This document shows positions 14,045 through 54,322 of a DNA stretch of 64,000 nt, piece after piece. The stretch's first letter is position 1. Each line of letters begins with the position of its first letter. The stretch comes from a bacterium (GTDB taxonomy: Bacteria; Patescibacteriota; Minisyncoccia; Moranbacterales; GWC2-37-73), in the NCBI GenBank assembly GCA_037140955.1, contig JBAXDL010000005.1, positions 12,334 through 76,333 on the forward strand. Direction: 5' to 3'. The notes beneath the pieces were generated by a model. It was not told the origin of the DNA, did not search any database, and was given only the letters and a program-made list of their open reading frames with translations. The translations under genes and the position numbers were made by a program.

Positions 14045-14632
14045 TTGAAAATAAAAATGGATAAAACAATAAAAATAGGACTTATCGCGGTTGTTGTTTT
14101 GGGTCTTGTCAGTGGAGCATTCTTGTTTTTTGGTAGAAAAAAAGCACCAGCGCCTCTGCCAGCAAAAAAAGTGCAAGCAACAGCTCCAATAAATAGTTCA
14201 AGTCTGACACCGGCTGAGCAAAAACCAACAACCTTGCCATCTCAAGCTGCAAATGCAGGCACTCCAACACCAAGCACCACTGCTCCAGTTGCAAAGCCAG
14301 CTGTGAGTAAAGCACCTGTTGCTGCATCTAAAGATGATGCAAGGAAAAAAATAGTTACTAGTCAATGGGCACAATGTGCTGGAAAAACAATGCCAGCAAC
14401 AACAAATTTGATTTGGAGTATTAAAATTCTTGAAGGTATTCCTGTTGGTGGAACATATGCCAAAGGAACTCTTAATGGTGATGCAGGCTTTCCCGTGCAA
14501 ATTACAATAAAAAAGACCAGCACCATTGTTGATAAAATAAAAGCCATGCTTGTTACTGACAAAATGGCATTTCTGCGTGGAACATGTGGTGGTTTTTCTG
14601 CTAGCGGAGCTGTGATGTTGGAAGTTTTTTAA
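14045..14632 (+). CDS. secreted/anchored Ala-Pro-Thr-rich protein, hypothetical
   Basis: N-terminal TM/signal, low-complexity APT linker, globular C-terminus. Confidence 0.5.
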   Translation: MKIKMDKTIKIGLIAVVVLGLVSGAFLFFGRKKAPAPLPAKKVQATAPINSSSLTPAEQKPTTLPSQAANAGTPTPSTTAPVAKPAVSKAPVAASKDDARKKIVTSQWAQCAGKTMPATTNLIWSIKILEGIPVGGTYAKGTLNGDAGFPVQITIKKTSTIVDKIKAMLVTDKMAFLRGTCGGFSASGAVMLEVF

Positions 14633-14670
14633 TTGGATAAAAAATAAGATTTGATTTTCTTGAGATAGAT

Positions 14671-14708
14671 AAAGAGGCGGTCCGTTTGGATCGCCTCTTG
14701 TTTTTTTG
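14671..14708 (+). terminator. rho-independent terminator
   Basis: agaggcg/cgcctct stem followed by a T-run. Confidence 0.6.
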
Positions 14709-14725
14709 GTTAAATAATTTCTGAC

Positions 14726-15196
14726 CTATTTTTTATCACCTCCTTTTTTGTGATAGTGCACAACAATTGCTGTGGTGCACTTACTGAAAACTCGTCCGCT
14801 GCCTGGCATTATTTTTTCGATAGCGAATGAGGGAGTTAAATACTCCTTTCTGTCTACTACCACATCAGGGGACTTCATGAGTAGTTCATCAATCTTGTTT
14901 TCAAGTTCCCAATAATAACATCTATCTGTTTCGTTGGTTTTTGTGAATACGACGGTTTTGTCGTTATCACGCTCTCTAGCAGTAGCAACTGCTTTCTGAT
15001 ATGCAGCCACTTCCTCCCTGGAAAGCTCCTTTTTTATGGGAGTCTTTACCGGTGCACCATTCTGTGGCAGCGTTGTTGCAAAATTCTCACTACAGCTTTG
15101 TCCAGCTGGGCATGGCTCAGTTGCTAAGACAAAACTTGCGCCCAATATTATAAAAAACACAGCCATCACAAGTACCACCAAAATATTTTTTTTCAT
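14726..15196 (-). CDS. secreted hypothetical protein
   Basis: signal peptide; RBS aaaaggagaag upstream on the minus strand. Confidence 0.55.
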   Translation of the reverse strand: MKKNILVVLVMAVFFIILGASFVLATEPCPAGQSCSENFATTLPQNGAPVKTPIKKELSREEVAAYQKAVATARERDNDKTVVFTKTNETDRCYYWELENKIDELLMKSPDVVVDRKEYLTPSFAIEKIMPGSGRVFSKCTTAIVVHYHKKGGDKK

Positions 15197-15420
15197 GAAC
15201 TTCTCCTTTTTTGTGCCTCATTTGAGGCTAGAATATGTTATATTGCTATAACTTTTTATTATACTCTTTTTTTGTTATTTTGTCAACCATATTGTTTGTT
15301 AAAATTTTCGCTTTACGCTGCGTTTTTTTTGGTGTAGAATGAACAAAGAAATAAAGTTTCAAATTGAATTGAACTCTGCACAATTACTCGACCATTTTCC
15401 TTTTTTGGAAGAAGAAGTAT

Positions 15421-15503
15421 GTGTCATTCCGGGCTTGACCCGGAATCTAGTTTGAATTATTAATTAAAGTGTAACATAGATTCCCGCTTTCGCGGGAATG
15501 ACA
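15421..15503. repeat. nested palindromic element: two 8-bp-stem hairpins (ATTCCGGG..CCCGGAAT and ATTCCCGC..GCGGGAAT) that are themselves inverted copies
   Basis: tgtcattccgggcttgacccggaatctag [26 nt] tagattcccgctttcgcgggaatgaca; followed by ttattttttttg. Confidence 0.5.
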
Positions 15504-15577
15504 ATAGCTATTATTTTTTTTGAACATTTGAATTTGTTTAGAAATTAAAAATTAGAAATTAAAAATTTTATACCATT

Positions 15578-18223
15578 ATGACACTATTTAGCAAAATATT
15601 TGGTTCAAATGAAAGAGAAGTGAATAAGCTCAGGCCAATCGTGGAAACCATTAATTCGCTTGAAGAAAAAATGATTCCACTTTCAGATGAGGAGTTGAGA
15701 GATAAGGCCAAGGAATTCAGGCAAAGAGTTGAAAAAGGAGAAACTTTGGATCAAATTTTGCCAGAAGCCTTTGCTGTTGTTCGTGAAGTTGCCAAGCGAG
15801 TTAATAATACTCGTCATTTTGATGTGCAGATGTTGGGAGGAATCGCATTGCATCATGGAAAAATAACCGAAATGAAAACTGGAGAAGGAAAGACTCTGAC
15901 TTCAACACTTCCGATTTATTTGAATGCAATTGAAAACAAGGGTGTGCATGTGGTGACTGTTAATGATTATTTGGCAAAGCGAGATTGCAACTGGATGGGT
16001 TCAATTTATCATGCGCTGGGGCTTTCCACTGCTTGCATCATGCATGATGTTTCATATATTTATGAACCACAAGTTTTTGACACTGATGAAGTTAGTGTTG
16101 AAATGGAAAACCTTTCCGAGATCAGCAGAAAAGAAGCTTATGCTGCTGATATTACCTATGGAACAAATAATGAATTTGGTTTTGATTATCTGCGAGACAA
16201 CATGGTACAAAATCATGAACAAATGTCACAACGAGAACTAAATTATGCAATTGTTGATGAAGTTGATTCTATTTTGATTGATGAGGCTCGTACTCCACTG
16301 ATTATTTCTGCACCTGACAGTGAGTCAACCAAATTGTATCAACGTTTTGCACAATTGGTTCCTCGTCTTTTGGAAAAAGAAGACTACGAGGTTGATGAGA
16401 AAATGAAAGCAGTGACTTTGACTGAAAATGGAATTGCAAAAGTGGAAAGAGATTTAGGCGTTGGAAATATCTATGAACTTGGGAAGATAAACTACGTTCA
16501 TCACCTGGAGCAATCTCTTCGCGCTGAAGCTTTGTTCAAGTTGGACAAGGATTATGTGGTCAAAGATGGTCAGGTTATTATTGTGGATGATTTTACTGGA
16601 CGTCTTATGGAAGGACGTCGCTATAGTGATGGTTTGCATCAAGCAATTGAAGCAAAAGAAGGGGTTGAGGTTCAAAAAGAATCTCGCACTTTGGCCACCA
16701 TCACCTTTCAAAATTATTTTCGCATGTACAAAAATTTGGCCGGAATGACAGGAACAGCCTCAACTAGCGCCGAGGAATTTTCAAAGGTGTACAAAATTGA
16801 TGTGATGGAAATTCCAACGAACAAAGTTTTGATTCGTAAAGATTTGCCTGATGTCGTTTATAAAACAGAAAAAGGAAAATTTGATGCAATTGTGCAAACA
16901 ATCAAGGAGGCACATTCAGTTGGGCAACCATTTTTGGTTGGAACAATTGCTATTGAGAAATCGGAATATTTGAGCGCACTTCTTTCTCGTGAGGGAATTG
17001 CTCATGAAGTTTTGAATGCAAAGCATCACGAAAGAGAAGCTGCGATTATTGCTGGAGCTGGTCAAAAAGGTGCGGTGACAATTGCCACAAACATGGCTGG
17101 GCGAGGAACTGACATTAAACTCGGAGAAGGGGTGAGAGAAGTTGGTGGGTTGTATATTATTGGCACTGAACGACATGAAGCCAGGCGAATTGACAATCAA
17201 CTTCGAGGAAGAGCTGGACGTCAAGGTGATCCAGGTGCTACTCAGTTTTATGTTTCACTAGAGGATGAATTGATGCGAAGATTTGGAGGTGACAGGTTGA
17301 AAAACATGATGGACACGCTTGGTCTTCCTGAGGATCAACCTATTCAAAATGCAATAATCTCACGCACAATTGAAAGTGCCCAGTCAAAAATTGAAGGGTA
17401 TAATTTTGATATTCGAAAACATGTGCTTGATTATGATGATGTGATGAACAAGCAACGAGAGGTTGTGTACAAAAAACGCAAAGAAATTTTGGCATCGAGT
17501 GATATGAAAGCGGAGGTGATGCAATATGTTGAAGAGGAAATAGAGAGAACTATTTCTGTGCATTGCACTGGCGAGGAATATCAATGGAACATTGAGATGA
17601 TTGCAACTGAATTGCAAAATATCTTTGCATTCAACGAGCAAGACAAAAAGAAGCTTGAACAAGTTCGCGATGACAAGTCAAAAAACACAGTTGAAAAAAT
17701 TTCTCTCATGATGGACTATGTCATGGGCAGATCAAAAGAAGCTTATATTCAAAAAGAAAAAGAAATAGGCGTGGATGTTTTGAGGCAAATCGAAAAAGCG
17801 ATCGTTTTGCAAACAATCGACACCCTTTGGATGAATCATTTGGATGAAATTGATTATTTGCGACAAGGCATCGGGCTTCGTGGTTATGGTCAGCGTGATC
17901 CATTGATTGAATACAAGCGAGAGGCTTTTCATATGTTTTCAAATTTGATGGAAAACATGAGATCGACAACTGTGCGCACTATTTTCAAAGTTTCTGTTAT
18001 GTCTGCTGCTCCTTCGGCCGCAGCTTCTGTTGCGCCAAAAAATATTCAATTTCATGGAGCCCAGGATAATGTTTCTGCCATTGGAGAGGTTAGTGAGGGT
18101 GGCGCTCAAGCAAATGAAAGTCACACTGCTCAAAAACCAATCATAAACAGAGAGAGTGTTGGAAGAAATGACAAATGTCCTTGTGGTAGTGGAAAAAAAT
18201 TCAAGAATTGCTGCGGAAAATAA
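15578..18223 (+). CDS. secA: preprotein translocase ATPase SecA
   Basis: DEAD-like motor motifs and a C-terminal Zn finger 'CPCGSGKKFKNCCG'. Confidence 0.95.
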   Translation: MTLFSKIFGSNEREVNKLRPIVETINSLEEKMIPLSDEELRDKAKEFRQRVEKGETLDQILPEAFAVVREVAKRVNNTRHFDVQMLGGIALHHGKITEMKTGEGKTLTSTLPIYLNAIENKGVHVVTVNDYLAKRDCNWMGSIYHALGLSTACIMHDVSYIYEPQVFDTDEVSVEMENLSEISRKEAYAADITYGTNNEFGFDYLRDNMVQNHEQMSQRELNYAIVDEVDSILIDEARTPLIISAPDSESTKLYQRFAQLVPRLLEKEDYEVDEKMKAVTLTENGIAKVERDLGVGNIYELGKINYVHHLEQSLRAEALFKLDKDYVVKDGQVIIVDDFTGRLMEGRRYSDGLHQAIEAKEGVEVQKESRTLATITFQNYFRMYKNLAGMTGTASTSAEEFSKVYKIDVMEIPTNKVLIRKDLPDVVYKTEKGKFDAIVQTIKEAHSVGQPFLVGTIAIEKSEYLSALLSREGIAHEVLNAKHHEREAAIIAGAGQKGAVTIATNMAGRGTDIKLGEGVREVGGLYIIGTERHEARRIDNQLRGRAGRQGDPGATQFYVSLEDELMRRFGGDRLKNMMDTLGLPEDQPIQNAIISRTIESAQSKIEGYNFDIRKHVLDYDDVMNKQREVVYKKRKEILASSDMKAEVMQYVEEEIERTISVHCTGEEYQWNIEMIATELQNIFAFNEQDKKKLEQVRDDKSKNTVEKISLMMDYVMGRSKEAYIQKEKEIGVDVLRQIEKAIVLQTIDTLWMNHLDEIDYLRQGIGLRGYGQRDPLIEYKREAFHMFSNLMENMRSTTVRTIFKVSVMSAAPSAAASVAPKNIQFHGAQDNVSAIGEVSEGGAQANESHTAQKPIINRESVGRNDKCPCGSGKKFKNCCGK

Positions 18224-19335: not shown

Positions 19336-19471
19336 TGAATCCGGTAGTGAAAATTCAAAAGAAGGGAATATCGGATTGTTTCTGGAATGTTTTTAATCCA
19401 ATATGTAGCATTTTTATATAATTAAGAATTTTTTGAGCAAAGCTCATTTGAATTTCTACTACCGGATGAAT
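19336..19471. repeat. about 22-bp imperfect inverted repeat bracketing the secD 5' leader and start codon
   Basis: atgaatccggtagtgaaaattc ... gaatttctactaccggatgaat; the right arm contains the secD ATG. Confidence 0.5.
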
Positions 19472-21142
19472 ATAAAGAAAAAATTACAATTAAAATTTGG
19501 TGGGATTATTGTTTTGGCTTTAATGTGCGGCTTGTTTTCATATCCTCAAATTGTTAGCAAGGCTCCTCCTGTCTATGATTTTTTCAACAAGTTCAAGCTC
19601 AATCTCGGTCTTGATTTGCAAGGGGGATTTCATTTGGAATATAAGGCTGATGTTTCTAATATTGATTCAACAAAAGTTGCCGAGGCTATGCAAGGTGCGC
19701 AGACCGTCATCGAAAGACGAGTTAACGCTTTTGGTGTTGGCGAGCCATTGGTTCAAACAGCAAAAAGTGGACAAGAGAATCGTATTATTGTTGAATTGCC
19801 AGGAATAAAGGATATAGAAGAGGCAAAAACAAAAATCAAAGATGCTCCATTGTTGGAATTTAAAGAAGAAGGTCCGGTTGATGCTCAAGTTCAGCAAATG
19901 TTTGATCAAGCAAATCAGCAGGCAAAAGAAAAGGCTGCAAAAATTCTTGATGAGGTGAAAAATGGTGGTGATTTTGCGCAACTTGCAAAAGACAATAGTG
20001 AGGATCCAGGCTCAAAAGACAAAGGTGGTGATTTGGACTTTGTGAAAAAAGGAGCCTTTGTTCCTGAATTTGATAAAGTTTTGTTTGATTCAAATTTGAA
20101 GAATGGGGATATTTATCCTGATTTGGTTGAATCAACTTATGGATGGCATATTATCAAATTCATTGAATCTCGCGGTGAGGGTGCTGATTTGGAAGTTCAT
20201 GCTCAGCATATTCTTTTTTTGAAAAAAGATCCTTCTCAATATGATCAGTTCAAATATCAAACAACAGGATTGACTGGAAAAAATTTGAAAAGTGCTACTG
20301 CGCAATACTCTCAAGGACAAGGCCTTGGTGAGCCAGAGGTTGCTTTGCAATTTGATGAAGAAGGAACAAATCTTTTTGCTGAGTTGACCAAGAAAAACCT
20401 TGGCAAAAAAATAGCCATCTTTCTTGATGGAGAGTTGCAAATAGCTCCAACTGTTCAGGTTGAAATTACTAATGGTCAAGCGGTTATTACCGGAAATTAT
20501 ACTTTCAAAGAAGCAAAGGATATTTCTGACAGATTGAATCAAGGAGCGCTTCCAGTTCCTTTGACCTTGGTTGGACAACAGAGTGTTGAGGCAACTCTTG
20601 GGGCTGATTCGCTGCGAAGCATTTTGATTGCTGGTGCAATTGGACTTGGTGCAGTGATTGTCTTCATGCTTATCTTCTATCGCTTCTTGGGATTGGTAGC
20701 CTCACTGGCTTTGCTTATTTATACTGTTGCAATGATTACGCTTTTCAAGATGACTGGAATTACTTTGACACTTTCTGGTATTGCAGGGTTTGTGCTTTCA
20801 ATTGGAATGGCGGTGGACGCAAATATTTTGATTTTTGAAAGAACAAAAGAAGAAATTAGAGGTGGTCGCTCAATTGCAAACTCATTGGAAGAAGGATTCA
20901 AGCGTGCTTGGACTTCAATTCGTGATGGAAATGTTTCTTCATTGCTCACTTCTGGAATTTTGTACTTGATGGGAACTGGATTTGTGAAAGGATTTGCGGC
21001 TGCACTTTTCATTGGAGTAGTGGTTTCCATGTTTACTGCGGTGGTGATTACTCGTACAATGCTTAAGTTTATTATTAGTGATTGGATTCATGGAAGAACA
21101 TGGATGGTTGGAGTTAGAAAAAAGGATATTAAAAATGGATAA
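19466..21142 (+). CDS. secD: protein-export membrane protein SecD with an embedded parvulin (PpiC/PrsA-type) PPIase domain
   Basis: SecD P1 start 'GLDLQGGFH', C-terminal TM bundle 'GMAVDANILIFER'; internal segment 'NGGDFAQLAKDNSEDPGSKDKGGDLDFV...STYGWHIIK' matches the parvulin fold; the track ORF starts at an alternative TTG (19433). Confidence 0.85.
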   Translation: MNIKKKLQLKFGGIIVLALMCGLFSYPQIVSKAPPVYDFFNKFKLNLGLDLQGGFHLEYKADVSNIDSTKVAEAMQGAQTVIERRVNAFGVGEPLVQTAKSGQENRIIVELPGIKDIEEAKTKIKDAPLLEFKEEGPVDAQVQQMFDQANQQAKEKAAKILDEVKNGGDFAQLAKDNSEDPGSKDKGGDLDFVKKGAFVPEFDKVLFDSNLKNGDIYPDLVESTYGWHIIKFIESRGEGADLEVHAQHILFLKKDPSQYDQFKYQTTGLTGKNLKSATAQYSQGQGLGEPEVALQFDEEGTNLFAELTKKNLGKKIAIFLDGELQIAPTVQVEITNGQAVITGNYTFKEAKDISDRLNQGALPVPLTLVGQQSVEATLGADSLRSILIAGAIGLGAVIVFMLIFYRFLGLVASLALLIYTVAMITLFKMTGITLTLSGIAGFVLSIGMAVDANILIFERTKEEIRGGRSIANSLEEGFKRAWTSIRDGNVSSLLTSGILYLMGTGFVKGFAAALFIGVVVSMFTAVVITRTMLKFIISDWIHGRTWMVGVRKKDIKNG

Positions 21143-22074: not shown

Positions 22075-22215
22075 TTTAAATATAAATAATTTCGAAGTCT
22101 GAATTTTGAATTTTGAATCAAATCTGAATGATATAATGTTTTAAATATTAAAAATTAAATCATTGGAAATTAATTCAAAATTCAAAATTAGAAATTCAAA
22201 ATTAATAAAATCTAT

Positions 22216-29629: not shown

Positions 29630-31726
29630 ATGGCTCAAAAAAACGAAATTGCATTTTTTGCAAAAACAAATTTTAGAAATCAAGAAAGAGTTTTCGGCAT
29701 CAAAACTGATGATCGCACTCGACACATGTATATCATTGGAAAGACCGGTATGGGAAAAACAAACCTGCTGGAAAATTTGGTGGTGCAGGACATTAGAAAC
29801 GGTCATGGTATTTGTTATATTGATCCACATGGTGACACGGCTGAAAAATTGCTTAGAGCGATTCCCGCTGAACGCATTAATGATGTTATTTATTTGAATC
29901 CTTCTGATCAAAATTATCCTTTGGCTTTCAACGTGATGGAATCGGTTGATCCTGACTATCGTCACTTGGTGGCATCGGGCTTGATTGGTGTTTTCAAAAA
30001 AATCTGGGCTGATTCCTGGGGACCACGCTTGGAGTATATTTTGCGTAATGCAATTTTGGCACTTTTGGAATATCCTGGGAGCACCTTGCTGGGTGTGACC
30101 AGGATTTTGGTGGACAAGAAATATCGCGAAAGAGTGGTTGAAAAGGTGACTGATCCGGTGATTAGGCAATTTTGGGTGGATGAATTTCCAAAATGGAGTG
30201 ACAAGGTTTTGCAAGAAGTTGTTTCTCCGATTCAAAACAAGGTTGGACAATTCTTGTCATCTTCTTTGATTCGAAACATTGTTGGTCAAACAAAATCTTC
30301 TTTTGACATTCGAAATGCAATGGACACGCAAAAGATTTTGATCATCAATCTTTCCAAAGGAAGAATTGGTGAAGACAATGGTGCGCTTTTGGGAGCCATG
30401 ATGATCACCAAGATTCAATTGGCAGCCATGGGACGCGTGGACATAGCGGAGGCTGATCGTAAAGATTTTTATTTATATGTTGATGAGTTTCAAAATTTTG
30501 CCACAGAATCTTTTGCCAACATTTTGTCTGAAGCTCGAAAATATCGCTTGAATTTGATTTTGGCAAATCAATATATCACTCAAATTGATGAAAAAGTTCG
30601 TGATGCTATTTTTGGTAATGCTGGCACGATCATTTCTTTTCGTGTGGGTGCGATGGATGCTGAATTTTTGGAAAAAGAATTTATGCCAGTTTTTGTGCAA
30701 AATGACATCGTGAATTTGCCAAAATATAACATATATTTGAAGCTCATGATTGATGGAATTGCAGGTGATGCTTTTTCTGCTACTGTTTTGCCACCTGTTT
30801 ACATCGGTGACACGGCTGAAAATGAGGAAAAGATTATTGCAGCTTCGCGTGAGCGTTATGCTTCTAGTAAGGAAGAAGTTGAAGACAAAATTTCACGTTG
30901 GGCTGGTGTGATGCCTGCAGCAGGCTTTACTACTGTCAACAAGGCTCCTGAGCAAGTTGCTCAAAATCCAAATAATATTAAATATGTTCATCCGGTGAGC
31001 AGCCCTCAGCAAAGATCAAATTCAATACAGAATTTTGCTCCAAAAGCAGTTGCTGCCCCAGTTGCACTAAAAGCTCAGCAACCAGTGCGAAATGTTGCCT
31101 CAAGCGCTCCTGTAAGCGCTCCAGTGCCTATTGCTGCTCCTTTGTCTCAAAAATCAGTGCAGCGGCCAGTTGAAGAACAAAAAAAGCCCTATGTGCAGGA
31201 TGATTTGGGGGAATATAATGAAATTCCAAAAAATGAGGCTGTACAATCAATTGCAGCTGAGCCAGAAGAAAATCATGACTATTATGTGAAGCCAATTGAT
31301 GATCGGCCAAAATTTGATGCTGTTTGCGACATGTGCGCGGACAATATTCAAATTCCTTTTGCTCCAGATGGAAAAAGACCAACTTTTTGCAAGGATTGCT
31401 TGAAAGAATATCAACGCATGAATGCTAAGGAGAAATTGAAGCAGGAAGAGAAAATAAAGCGACAGCAAGAAGAAGCGCAGGTTCAAGAGGTGCCAACTGC
31501 TTCGCCAGCAAAAACATATCCAAAAAAGTTTGAAAGCAAGTCTGCTACAAATCAAGCGCCAAGACAAGAAAGAAAAACCGAACACAAGGCTTTTGTTTCT
31601 AAGGATAGGCCCATGTCACTTTCGCAAATGCAGCATATTGCACCCAAGCAATTCAAGCCAACTCGCGTCCGTCCACAAATAAACTTGAGTGAAGTGAGAG
31701 AAATGATTAATAAAAACAAAGAATAG
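29630..31726 (+). CDS. FtsK/HerA-superfamily P-loop ATPase (T4 coupling-protein / DUF87-like) with low-complexity linker and C-terminal C4 zinc ribbon
   Basis: 'RHMYIIGKTGMGKT' Walker A in T4CP-like context, 'IDPHGD', Walker B 'YVDEFQNF', 'RKYRLNLILANQ'; C-terminal 'CDMCADN...FCKDC'. Confidence 0.7.
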   Translation: MAQKNEIAFFAKTNFRNQERVFGIKTDDRTRHMYIIGKTGMGKTNLLENLVVQDIRNGHGICYIDPHGDTAEKLLRAIPAERINDVIYLNPSDQNYPLAFNVMESVDPDYRHLVASGLIGVFKKIWADSWGPRLEYILRNAILALLEYPGSTLLGVTRILVDKKYRERVVEKVTDPVIRQFWVDEFPKWSDKVLQEVVSPIQNKVGQFLSSSLIRNIVGQTKSSFDIRNAMDTQKILIINLSKGRIGEDNGALLGAMMITKIQLAAMGRVDIAEADRKDFYLYVDEFQNFATESFANILSEARKYRLNLILANQYITQIDEKVRDAIFGNAGTIISFRVGAMDAEFLEKEFMPVFVQNDIVNLPKYNIYLKLMIDGIAGDAFSATVLPPVYIGDTAENEEKIIAASRERYASSKEEVEDKISRWAGVMPAAGFTTVNKAPEQVAQNPNNIKYVHPVSSPQQRSNSIQNFAPKAVAAPVALKAQQPVRNVASSAPVSAPVPIAAPLSQKSVQRPVEEQKKPYVQDDLGEYNEIPKNEAVQSIAAEPEENHDYYVKPIDDRPKFDAVCDMCADNIQIPFAPDGKRPTFCKDCLKEYQRMNAKEKLKQEEKIKRQQEEAQVQEVPTASPAKTYPKKFESKSATNQAPRQERKTEHKAFVSKDRPMSLSQMQHIAPKQFKPTRVRPQINLSEVREMINKNKE

Positions 31727-32607: not shown

Positions 32608-33924
32608 ATGAAACAAAAAACAGCACTCGAAATTTTGAAAATGGGACATAATGTTTTTTTGACTGGTCCAGCCGGTTCTGGCAAAACATTTTTGCTAAAT
32701 GAGTATATTGATTATCTCAAGAAAAATGGCATTGGCGTGGCAGTGACTGCTTCCACTGGGATTGCAGCGACACACATGAATGGTCAAACAATTCATTCAT
32801 GGTCAGGCATGGGGATCAGTGATGTTTTCTTGGAGGATGATTTTGCTAAACTAAAAAAAAGATATTATCATTGCGAACGCTTTAGGCACACCAAAGTGCT
32901 TATTATTGATGAAGTTTCAATGCTTCACGCTCATCAGTTGGACATTGTGAACAATATTTGCAAAAACTTTAAAAACCCAAAACTTCCTTTTGGTGGCTTG
33001 CAGGTTATTTTGTGTGGAGATTTTTTTCAATTGCCGCCGGTTGTGCGAAACGGAAAAAAGGCGCAATTTGTGATTGAATCTGAGGCTTGGATTGAAATGG
33101 ATCCAAAAATTTGTTACTTGGAAGAGCAGCACAGGCAAGAGGATTCTGCTATGTTGAAAATTTTGGCTGATATTCGAGGTAGAGCTTGCGACGAAGAGAC
33201 TATTGATCTTATTTGTTCCCGCCAAAACAAAAATATTAAAAATGGTATTACACCAACAAAGCTGTACACTCATAATGCTAACGTTGATGGTATTAATAAT
33301 TTGGAGCTTAAAAAAATAAATGAAGAACCTAAAATTTTTCAAATGACAACTGCTGGCATTGAACAATTGGCGGCGGTGGTGAAGAAGGGTTGTCTTGCTC
33401 CTGAAACATTGACGTTGAAAAAAGGAGCTGTGGTGATGTTTGTGAAAAACAATTTTGAAAAAGGTTATGTTAATGGAACTCTTGGAAAAATTAAGGATTT
33501 TGATCAAAGCGGGATGCCAATCGTGAAAACCTTTGCCGGCAAAGACATTGTGGCTCTGGCAGAAAAATGGTCAATTGAGGAGGATGGTGAGATGTTGGCA
33601 TCGGTTAGTCAAATTCCGCTGCGCTTGGCCTGGGCGATTACTGTGCACAAAAGTCAGGGAATGACGCTTGATGCTGTTGAAATGGATCTGGGACGTTCTT
33701 TTGAATATGGCATGGGATATGTTGCTCTTTCGCGAGTGAGGACACTTGATGGTATAAAATTGCTAGGAATAAATGATATTGCTTTGGAGGTCAATCCAAT
33801 AGTATTTGAACTGGACAAGGTGCTCAAGGAATTGTCGAATGCGAATTCAAAAGCGACCTTGAAAATGAAAATTAGTGAAAAAAAATCTTTGCAAAAAAAG
33901 TTTTTAGAAAAATGCATAAACTAG
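32608..33924 (+). CDS. Pif1/RecD-like SF1B DNA helicase (AAA_30 + UvrD_C_2 architecture)
   Basis: Walker A 'GPAGSGKTF', 'VLIIDEVSML', 'ILCGDFFQLPPV', 'AITVHKSQGMTLD'. Confidence 0.8.
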   Translation: MKQKTALEILKMGHNVFLTGPAGSGKTFLLNEYIDYLKKNGIGVAVTASTGIAATHMNGQTIHSWSGMGISDVFLEDDFAKLKKRYYHCERFRHTKVLIIDEVSMLHAHQLDIVNNICKNFKNPKLPFGGLQVILCGDFFQLPPVVRNGKKAQFVIESEAWIEMDPKICYLEEQHRQEDSAMLKILADIRGRACDEETIDLICSRQNKNIKNGITPTKLYTHNANVDGINNLELKKINEEPKIFQMTTAGIEQLAAVVKKGCLAPETLTLKKGAVVMFVKNNFEKGYVNGTLGKIKDFDQSGMPIVKTFAGKDIVALAEKWSIEEDGEMLASVSQIPLRLAWAITVHKSQGMTLDAVEMDLGRSFEYGMGYVALSRVRTLDGIKLLGINDIALEVNPIVFELDKVLKELSNANSKATLKMKISEKKSLQKKFLEKCIN

Positions 33925-53001: not shown

Positions 53002-53748
53002 ATGAACGAACGCCAAGAAAAAATTTTATCAACCATCATTGAAGAATACACCAAAACAGCTATTCCTGTTGGTAGTGGAGTTTTGGTTGGTAAATATAAA
53101 TTCAAGGTTAGCACTGCCACCATTCGAAATGACATGATGGTTTTGGAAAATGATGGATATTTGTATCAGCCACATATTAGTGCAGGAAGAATTCCAACAG
53201 ACAAGGGTTATCGATATTTTGTGGAAGAGGTGATGAAGGATAAGGTTCTCTCGAAAGAACAGCAACAAGAAATGCAGCGTGAGTTTTTGAAGCTAAAAGC
53301 TCAAAACACACGTTTGACCAGAACAACTGCAAAATTACTTTCTAATATTAGTGGAAATTTTGCAATTAGCGGCTTGATTGATAATGACGAATTTTCTGAT
53401 TTTGGAATGAGGGAATTGATGGAAGAGCCAGAATTTAAGGAATTGGATGAGATGTGTCGCTTGGTTGAAATGCTTGACTATGTTGATGAGAAATTTGATC
53501 AGCTCACTAAAGACATTAAGGATGGCGAGACAAAAATCTTTATTGGCAAGGAGAATCCCATAGATGGAACGGCAAATTGCTCTATGATCGTGTCGCCATA
53601 TCGCTTGAGCTCTGGCGAAAAAGGAATTTTGGCACTAATTGGACCAAAGCGTATGGAATATGCAAAAAACAAATCAATGATTGAATATGTGAAAAAATTA
53701 TTAGGAGCAAGCATGGTGATTATAATTATGATAAATATTTATTTATAA
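53002..53748 (+). CDS. hrcA: heat-inducible transcription repressor HrcA (short, 248 aa)
   Basis: N-terminal wHTH 'ILSTIIEEYTKTAIPVGSGVL' and the CIRCE context. Confidence 0.85.
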   Translation: MNERQEKILSTIIEEYTKTAIPVGSGVLVGKYKFKVSTATIRNDMMVLENDGYLYQPHISAGRIPTDKGYRYFVEEVMKDKVLSKEQQQEMQREFLKLKAQNTRLTRTTAKLLSNISGNFAISGLIDNDEFSDFGMRELMEEPEFKELDEMCRLVEMLDYVDEKFDQLTKDIKDGETKIFIGKENPIDGTANCSMIVSPYRLSSGEKGILALIGPKRMEYAKNKSMIEYVKKLLGASMVIIIMINIYL

Positions 53749-53761
53749 AATTTAAAAATTT

Positions 53762-54322
53762 TTGAAAATTATGTCAAAAGAACACAAAAAAAAGAAAGAA
53801 GAAGTAATTGAATCAGAAGAAGAAATTGTTGATGCAAATTCTCAAACTATTGACGAGGCAACTGATGAGTTTGAAGAGCTGAGAAAAAAAGCTGCTGAAA
53901 ATTTGGAGGGATGGCAACGTCTGCAAGCTGAATTTGAAAATTACAAAAAAAGAACAGCAGAGTCACAAAAGGACATGATAAAATATGCGACCCAAAACAT
54001 TGTTCTTGAGATTCTACCGGTGATTGATAATTTTCACGCCTCAACCGATCACATTCCAGAAGATCAAAAGGAAAATCCTTGGGTAACCGGGATCATGTAT
54101 ATTCAAAAGCAGCTTGAAAACGTGCTGACGGAAAATGGAGTGGAGGAGATTGTTGCCAATGTTGGAGATAATTTTGATCCAATATATCACGAGGCAATTG
54201 AAGACAAGGAGTGCGAAGATTGCAAAAATGAAAAATATGTAAACAAGATTAAGAAAGTTTTGACAAAGGGGTATAAGATTAGTGATAGAGTTATTCGTGC
54301 GGCAAGAGTGGTAGTTGAATAG
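53762..54322 (+). CDS. grpE: nucleotide exchange factor GrpE
   Basis: 'LQAEFENYKKR' and C-terminal beta-domain. Confidence 0.9.
   Translation: MKIMSKEHKKKKEEVIESEEEIVDANSQTIDEATDEFEELRKKAAENLEGWQRLQAEFENYKKRTAESQKDMIKYATQNIVLEILPVIDNFHASTDHIPEDQKENPWVTGIMYIQKQLENVLTENGVEEIVANVGDNFDPIYHEAIEDKECEDCKNEKYVNKIKKVLTKGYKISDRVIRAARVVVE

Follow-up and report, generated by a model that had tools for sequence, protein, structure and literature searches.

A hairpin doublet with the features of CGTC-tagged REPs lies upstream of secA in a Moranbacteria-like member of the Patescibacteria

Two small palindromes stand before secA in the 64-kb stretch of Patescibacteria DNA analysed here (hereafter, the window), and they raise the question of whether they belong to secA, as an attenuator or terminator-like leader structure, or to a family of small palindromic repeats of the REP or MITE kind. 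The original prediction allowed for both. Its description of the structure largely holds. The repeat finder recovers two internally palindromic hairpins upstream of secA, each with a perfect 8-bp stem, and they are mirrored copies of one another as had been described, inverted in orientation and with both their outer arms (TGTCATTCC/GGAATGACA) and their inner arms (GGAATCTA/TAGATTCC) in mirror arrangement (repeat finder entries I15, I23, and I24). The compound structure is thus real, while its dimensions shift by one nucleotide throughout: it starts at 15422 and measures 82 nt rather than 83, its spacer is 25 nt rather than 26, and 74 nt rather than 75 separate it from the secA ATG at 15578 (Table 1). 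In minus-strand order (15503-15476), the right unit reads TGTC-ATTCCCGC-GAAA-GCGGGAAT-CTAT. Because the two units are mutually inverted, each DNA strand has one forward unit at its 5′ end. Matches to ATTCC-N(8-16)-GGAAT occur five times in the 64-kb window, against 0.75 expected, and the only true hairpins among them are these two. Folded as single-stranded DNA, the left unit reaches -8.5 kcal/mol (z = -5.1) and the right unit -9.0 kcal/mol (z = -4.2), and the 88-nt element has a z-score of about -4.8 on either strand.

Table 1. Features of the doublet and of the region upstream of secA, in window coordinates.
Feature	Position	Strand	Description
Whole doublet	15422-15503	+	82 nt; head-to-head heterodimer, tags outside, CTAG/CTAT tails toward the spacer
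Left REP unit	15422-15450	+	tag, 8-bp stem, 5-nt loop CTTGA, tail CTAG; from sequence and repeat finder
Left unit, tag	15422-15425	+	TGTC
Left unit, stem	15426-15433 / 15439-15446	+	ATTCCGGG / CCCGGAAT
Spacer	15451-15475		25 nt, AT-rich; differs from copy to copy
Right REP unit	15476-15503	-	TGTCATTCCCGCGAAAGCGGGAATCTAT; TGTC tag, 8-bp stem, 4-nt loop GAAA, CTAT tail
Right unit, stem (plus-strand reading)	15480-15487 / 15492-15499	+	ATTCCCGC / GCGGGAAT; tail ATAG, loop TTTC
Right unit, tag (plus-strand reading)	15500-15503	+	GACA
Promoter-like TTGACA-17-TATAAT	15286-15258	-	perfect; serves the upstream hypothetical gene
Promoter-like TTTACG-17-TAGAAT	15312-15340	+	for secA; 9/12 consensus match; common to the window and seven relatives
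Hypothetical gene	14726-15196	-	156 aa; upstream of and divergent from secA
secA CDS	15578-18223	+	881 aa; SecA_DEAD and other SecA domains, E = 5e-126

The anatomy of the doublet is that of the CGTC-tagged REPs. In the parts of Di Nocera, De Gregorio, and Rocco (2013; PMC3733652) on which we draw, these REPs carry the tag CGTC, often TGTC, with a CCTC variant also accepted; their stems of 8-9 bp open with A-T and T-A pairs and are followed by a short unpaired tail with the consensus CCA; and their loops are of 4 nt in family 1, which includes dRS3, and of 5 nt in families 2-4. The same parts of that paper describe mostly head-to-head (HH) dimers with the tags outside and spacers of 20-100 bp, heterodimers being frequent, and present the elements as lacking a dedicated transposase and as known from Proteobacteria, Chlorobi, Bacteroidetes, Spirochaetes, and Thermotogae. 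The window doublet shares the TGTC tags (15422-15425 on the plus strand, 15503-15500 on the minus strand), the 8-bp stems opening with AT, the loops of 4 and 5 nt, the HH heterodimeric arrangement with tags outside, a spacer length within the described range, and an extragenic position. It differs in its host, a member of the Patescibacteria, and in its tails, which are CTAG and CTAT instead of CCA. As to dispersal, the window holds one copy in 64 kb, the related contig L273 holds three in 22.6 kb, and metagenome contigs hold up to five. Judged by stem and loop lengths only, the left unit looks like family 2 and the right unit like family 1.

The right unit also connects the doublet to a hairpin with a studied enzyme. 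Chenal et al. (2025; PMC11893778) describe the Neisseria dRS3 (ATTCCC-N8-GGGAAT) as the core of a 28-nt oriented hairpin, the NTS (CGTCATTCCCGCGMAVGCGGGAATCYRG), which SsnA, a small nuclease of the GIY-YIG type, binds and cuts in single-stranded form; the ssn gene encodes a single-domain GIY-YIG protein (cd10448) and is often flanked by the motif. A degenerate Ssn-related motif (SRM), HGTCWYN(0-2)YYVSBRHN(0-5)WNVSBRGN(0-2)RNCYNB, is reported from several phyla in the portions of that paper used here. The right unit of the window doublet is an exact dRS3 and agrees with the NTS at 26 of 28 bases, with mismatches at the first and last base, whereas the NTS definition allows only one mismatch. 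Read on the minus strand (15503..15476), it is the sole SRM match in the window, and one match arose in 4 of 30 dinucleotide shuffles. Like the NTS and SRM, it is a hairpin whose conserved 5′ flank gives it an orientation; unlike them, the window doublet is not part of an array, and an ssn gene was found neither in the window nor close to any of the copies studied. The left unit falls outside the strict SRM pattern, and its stem and loop differ from those of the NTS. On sequence grounds, then, we identify the doublet as a head-to-head heterodimer of CGTC-tagged REPs, a family that includes the Neisseria dRS3/NTS and the SRM hairpins, and the REP-like half of the original prediction fits the published definitions of both the CGTC-tagged REP dimer and the dRS3/NTS/SRM hairpin.

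Other known repeats resemble the doublet less closely. NIMEs (PMC1797815) also consist of inverted dRS3-type hairpins around a short, variable spacer of lower GC and are also intergenic, but they form long arrays with RS spacers of ~50-150 bp and were described as specific to Neisseria, whereas the window, from an unrelated phylum, has a lone doublet whose spacer measures 25 nt. REPINs (Bertels and Rainey 2011, PMC3116915) likewise comprise two inverted REPs with a short spacer that can form two hairpins or one long fold, and are dispersed, non-autonomous, and without target-site duplication; they differ in having a GTAG tag and an IS200/IS605-like Y1 (RAYT) transposase, while the tag here is TGTC and the window has no Y1 gene. 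A classic MITE, that is, a derivative of a DDE transposon, was considered and rejected: inverted ends are present, but target-site duplications were not found, and 90 of the 96 copies have no flanking direct repeat of any kind.

Within the 64-kb window, neither the covariance model described below nor the search pattern finds a further doublet; beyond it, copies are many, both in metagenomes and in the relative L273. A pattern for the window-type heterodimer (TGTCATNCC-NNN-CTTGA-NNN-GGNATC, then 10-40 nt, then GATTCCCGC) matched at least 120 metagenome contigs, whose GC content ranges from 32 to 61% among the 80 examined, and the window's exact left unit (a 25-mer) recurs in many metagenome doublets. 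The small palindromic repeat envisaged by the original prediction is borne out by this recurrence of the same doublet at at least 120 unrelated metagenome loci and at other intergenic sites of a close relative. Similar units occur at further unrelated loci, including two doublets in one Sungiibacteriota contig, and a loop-agnostic doublet pattern finds Neisseria-type and mixed doublets on 66 viral or proviral contigs. Some contigs hold several copies, with five in 12.5 kb of L205 and four each in L155, L173, and L245. Among the 120 matches listed, 20 are found no more than 150 nt from the end of a contig, where at most 10.4 would be expected; this roughly twofold excess is as expected of repeats, which break assemblies.

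The hairpins of these copies are maintained. When 58 doublets are aligned, 59 double-compensatory cells appear at the four stem pairs not fixed by the search pattern, and 99.8% of cells are paired; only these four pairs are informative, and columns fixed by the pattern say nothing. The covariation values were reached by 0 of 500 shuffles, and slid controls collapse. The spacer columns, in contrast to the stems, are variable, with lengths of 8-40 nt across the aligned doublets. Most related copies end in CCAG, versus CTAG and CTAT in the window doublet. A covariance model built from the 58 doublets, the window doublet among them, scores the latter at 78.2 bits (E = 2e-17), with the next best hit in the window at 15.5 bits. 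This is a multi-copy, intergenic family, spread across many lineages, whose hairpins are kept by compensatory changes. That score, and near-identical sequence at at least 120 other loci, leave next to no probability for a chance pair of palindromes or for a bidirectional terminator between divergent genes. The doublet does lie between genes in AT-rich DNA, and T-run hairpins often serve as terminators elsewhere in the window, but the genes on either side of the doublet diverge, with a perfect TTGACA-17-TATAAT on the minus strand, so no gene ends at the doublet and nothing there needs terminating.

The copies are mostly intergenic and show no orientation bias relative to flanking genes (24 co-directional, 22 opposite), and a bias with respect to GC skew is weak, 26 of 70 loci being positive on the element's sense strand. 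On the 5′ side their flank is rich in T, and directly past the element stands an A or a G; across 96 copies the downstream flank is not T-rich, and a T-run is not part of the other copies. All-against-all ORF clustering at 80 doublet loci found no recurrent neighbour gene, and the top ORF clusters around doublets are translations of the repeat. When translated, the doublet gives recurrent peptide strings such as HSRESGNP, VIPA.AGIQ, and GFRVKPGMT (L161, L164, L168, L192, and L211), and such spurious, doublet-derived clusters are likely a source of false ‘hypothetical protein’ families in databases. We also observe a three-hairpin variant, in which the loop of the right unit is enlarged by a nested CTTGA-type hairpin (for example GATTCCCGC-TGGAGTTTATCCCGCACTTTGATGCGGG-GCGGGAATGACA); it occurs in L014 (2803-2895) and in L160, L176, L189, L192, L202, L221, and L224.

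How, then, does the window copy stand with respect to secA? The window is 37% GC with uniformly positive GC skew, and its SecA shares 87-90% identity with proteins that carry the label Candidatus Moranbacteria, which makes the organism a Moranbacteria-like member of the Patescibacteria; the nearest species-representative SecA proteins are 65-66% identical, and no doublet is found in the leaders of their genes. The doublet sits in the 381-nt region that separates secA from the divergent hypothetical gene. As the promoter-like TTTACG-17-TAGAAT is common to the window and the seven relatives with alignable leaders, the doublet is placed in the secA 5′ UTR, most probably ~75-157 nt into a leader of ~230 nt, counted from the predicted transcription start. 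The original prediction had a T-run following the second hairpin. A run of eight T is present (15514-15521), but it begins 14 nt past the second stem and 10 nt past the outer pairing, and so does not stand directly behind the hairpin. An intrinsic terminator, which requires a GC-rich stem with a U-run directly after it, is not supported for this reason, and a terminator consensus scan makes no call at the doublet. As RNA, the 181-nt region folds at -39.6 kcal/mol (z = -2.8 against shuffles), into either two hairpins or a compound four-way structure. A permissive Rfam search of 14500-16500 returned only sub-threshold noise over the doublet (WsnRNA46 at 22 bits, cut-off 65.3; FtrB at 23, cut-off 66).

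Several other features of this locus are recorded here in their own right. A 12-bp GC-rich hairpin with T-runs lies at 14672-14699, between the convergent genes at 14045-14632 (+) and 14726-15196 (-); it is the sole terminator call in 14600-15800 and is likely a bidirectional terminator. The secA start codon lacks an evident Shine-Dalgarno sequence; just before it, a 14-nt tandem repeat (TTAGAAATTAAAAA, two copies) occupies 15538-15565. Tracts like aaattagaaattaaaaatt precede secA in doublet-carrying relatives (L149 9960-9990; L150 9965-9995) and also follow secF (window ~22100-22200), and in this clade the TTAGAAATTAAAAA and aaattagaaattaaaaatt tracts may serve as an A/U-rich signal, either for translation initiation or UP-like. 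Further along, in the SecD gene (19433-21142), the periplasmic P1 region contains an inserted peptidyl-prolyl isomerase (rotamase) domain of the PPIC type, a fusion kept in all the Moranbacteria relatives compared. Amid housekeeping genes, 29630-31726 and 32608-33924 encode a TrwB/TraG-like type IV coupling protein that has a zinc finger and a PIF1-like helicase, perhaps left over from a conjugative or DNA-uptake module.

We compared the secA leaders of eight genomes with SecA 87-92% identical and the same gene order (L147-L150 and L271-L274), seven of which have alignable leaders. The secA leader holds a doublet in only three of the eight (L149, L150, and L273), oriented as in the window; L147, L148, L271, and L272 have none there, and L274 has none in the 155 nt readable upstream of secA. 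In a neighbour-joining tree of SecA, the carriers do not form a clade. Among L149, L150, and L273 the leader upstream of the doublet is 79-80% identical, while the spacers of the secA-leader doublets are only 37-54% identical, about background, and the stems differ between relatives yet stay paired. The three copies of L273 comprise, besides that in its secA leader, a doublet downstream of hpf that has exactly the left unit of the L149 secA-leader doublet, and a solo unit just past secF. The window sites that correspond to these two are empty. Patchy presence, unrelated spacers, and the extra copies of L273 fit the gain, loss, and exchange of a mobile or recombining family, and the pattern does not fit an ancestral conserved regulatory structure. 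The original prediction had proposed a search both for other copies and for conservation in related secA leaders: consistent conservation is absent, yet copies elsewhere are many. Its first suggestion, of an attenuator or terminator-like leader for secA, is not supported, given the absence of the doublet from five of eight relatives' leaders (that of L274 being readable over 155 nt), the separation of the T-run from the stem, and the lack of orientation bias in the family.

The four known secA-leader doublets (those of the window, L149, L150, and L273) share one orientation and nearly one position, which could also be read as selection for a role in the leader; it is also conceivable that the secA leader is a preferred site for doublets. 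We have therefore weighed the possibility that the repeat has been recruited to serve in the secA leader as RNA, affecting mRNA stability, pausing or partial termination, or translation, and we consider it unlikely. The doublet lies downstream of a promoter-like motif common to the window and seven relatives and so is probably transcribed, its RNA fold is steadier than that of shuffles, the T8 run follows the outer pairing by 10 nt, and REPs in general are often transcribed and can act as RNA elements, according to the parts of PMC3733652 on which we draw. Such a role sits poorly, however, with a structure that five of the eight close relatives do without, on which the terminator scan is silent and for which Rfam gives no match above noise, in a family with neither T-rich downstream flanks nor a preferred orientation relative to genes. 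As a separate observation, the secA leaders of four relatives contain a small hairpin followed by a T-run (ttagccctatgaattagggtttt; L149 9781-9803, L150 9727-9749, L271 9828-9850, and L273 9797-9819), upstream of the site of the doublet and missing from the window leader. Of the two, this hairpin seems to bear the closer resemblance to a leader terminator or attenuator.

To our knowledge, SsnA of Neisseria is the only enzyme shown to bind and cut a dRS3/NTS-type motif. A Pfam scan of all ORFs in the window found no GIY-YIG, Y1 (RAYT-type) transposase, or IS110-type genes, and tblastn with an approximate GIY-YIG consensus, a weak probe, found none in the window, in the relatives, or beside doublets. 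A hidden Markov model built from 120 CPR GIY-YIG proteins and run against six-frame translations recovered its positive controls and found nothing in the 64-kb window, in ~170 kb of relatives' DNA, or beside the 120 listed metagenome doublets; one weak match (E = 0.0095) lies in L211, 9 kb from the doublet of that contig. The CPR GIY-YIG genes of L034, L275, and L276 are not flanked by TGTC or CGTC hairpins. With no Ssn gene found and the CPR GIY-YIG genes unflanked, a link to an Ssn-type nuclease would be drawn by analogy only, from the identity of the motif with the Neisseria substrate.

The small CPR GIY-YIG genes (~90-100 aa) have a conserved palindrome of their own downstream (AAATTCTCTACRGGG..CCCTGTAGRGAATTT; gene and palindrome coordinates are L034 318-362, L276 3298-3335, and L275 295-564 and 3001-3294), an arrangement that is like the pairing of Ssn nuclease and hairpin but with a different motif. 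They sit between housekeeping genes, many of them on very short contigs. In L275 the gene lies between hrcA and grpE, which are adjacent in the window (53002-54322).

A further possibility is that the hairpins are the target or crossover site of a site-specific recombinase or integrating element. The precedent comes from Neisseria, where dRS3 is the integration site of filamentous (Nf) prophages via a phage transposase/recombinase (PMC11893778, PMC1797815). The right unit is an exact copy of this documented phage recombinase target and proposed recombination site, similar doublets occur on proviral contigs, and relatives differ in their spacers at one and the same locus, as exchange by recombination would predict. 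The window, however, contains no integrase, IS110/Piv-type, or other recombinase gene, no inserted element is seen beside any examined copy, and no neighbour gene recurs at the 80 loci, and we regard this reading as quite improbable.

We instead favor, with a probability of roughly 70%, the reading that the doublet is one copy of a dispersed, non-coding CGTC-REP family that acts at the DNA level and is tolerated in the secA leader. Each unit consists of a short hairpin in the DNA, preceded on its 5′ side by the unpaired tag TGTC and followed by the 3′ tail CYAG. Under this reading, the family would work as single-stranded DNA, and a small enzyme, specific for both structure and sequence, would recognize hairpin and tag together. 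Gain, loss, and exchange of copies would be coupled to replication, repair, or recombination, and the family would probably not spread by classic cut-and-paste transposition. Copies lack target-site duplications and any gene-orientation preference, and the doublet is present in the secA leaders of some relatives and absent from those of others. The position in the secA 5′ UTR most likely reflects an insertion tolerated in a long AT-rich leader, and any effect of a stable leader structure on the secA mRNA would be a by-product. A dedicated secA attenuator or terminator is not supported.

Moranbacteria-like Patescibacteria have genomes of ~0.5-1 Mb and are usually thought to be repeat-poor. The kind of element that we describe is already known, from CGTC REPs, dRS3/NTS/SRM hairpins, and NIME-like and REPIN-like doublets, and as it stands the window doublet is an ordinary element of a described type. 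What is new is its host group. Neither Patescibacteria nor the CPR is mentioned in the portions of PMC3733652 and PMC11893778 used here, the supplementary tables of the latter aside, and the present copies extend CGTC REPs and dRS3/NTS/SRM hairpins to the Candidate Phyla Radiation, in Moranbacteria-like genomes and in Sungiibacteriota. New, too, are the recurrence of one heterodimer, combining a unit with the 5-nt CTTGA loop and a unit with a 4-nt loop, on contigs of very different GC, and the lack of a detectable Ssn gene near doublets. A speculative secA riboregulator is hereby replaced by a named repeat family, and annotators therefore have no need to mark these hairpins as a leader element particular to secA.

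Beyond this, we offer a conjecture with the odds well against it: Moranbacteria-like Patescibacteria may keep an active CGTC-REP family without an Ssn-type GIY-YIG nuclease, and the secA 5′ UTR is perhaps a recurrent insertion hot spot. If the secA 5′ UTR were such a hot spot, this would point either to a target preference or to a structure co-opted to tune secA expression. If the family were active without Ssn, a different enzyme recognizing the hairpin would be implied, and should the cognate enzyme indeed be something other than an Ssn nuclease, the family would offer a route to a new enzyme for the recognition of hairpin DNA.
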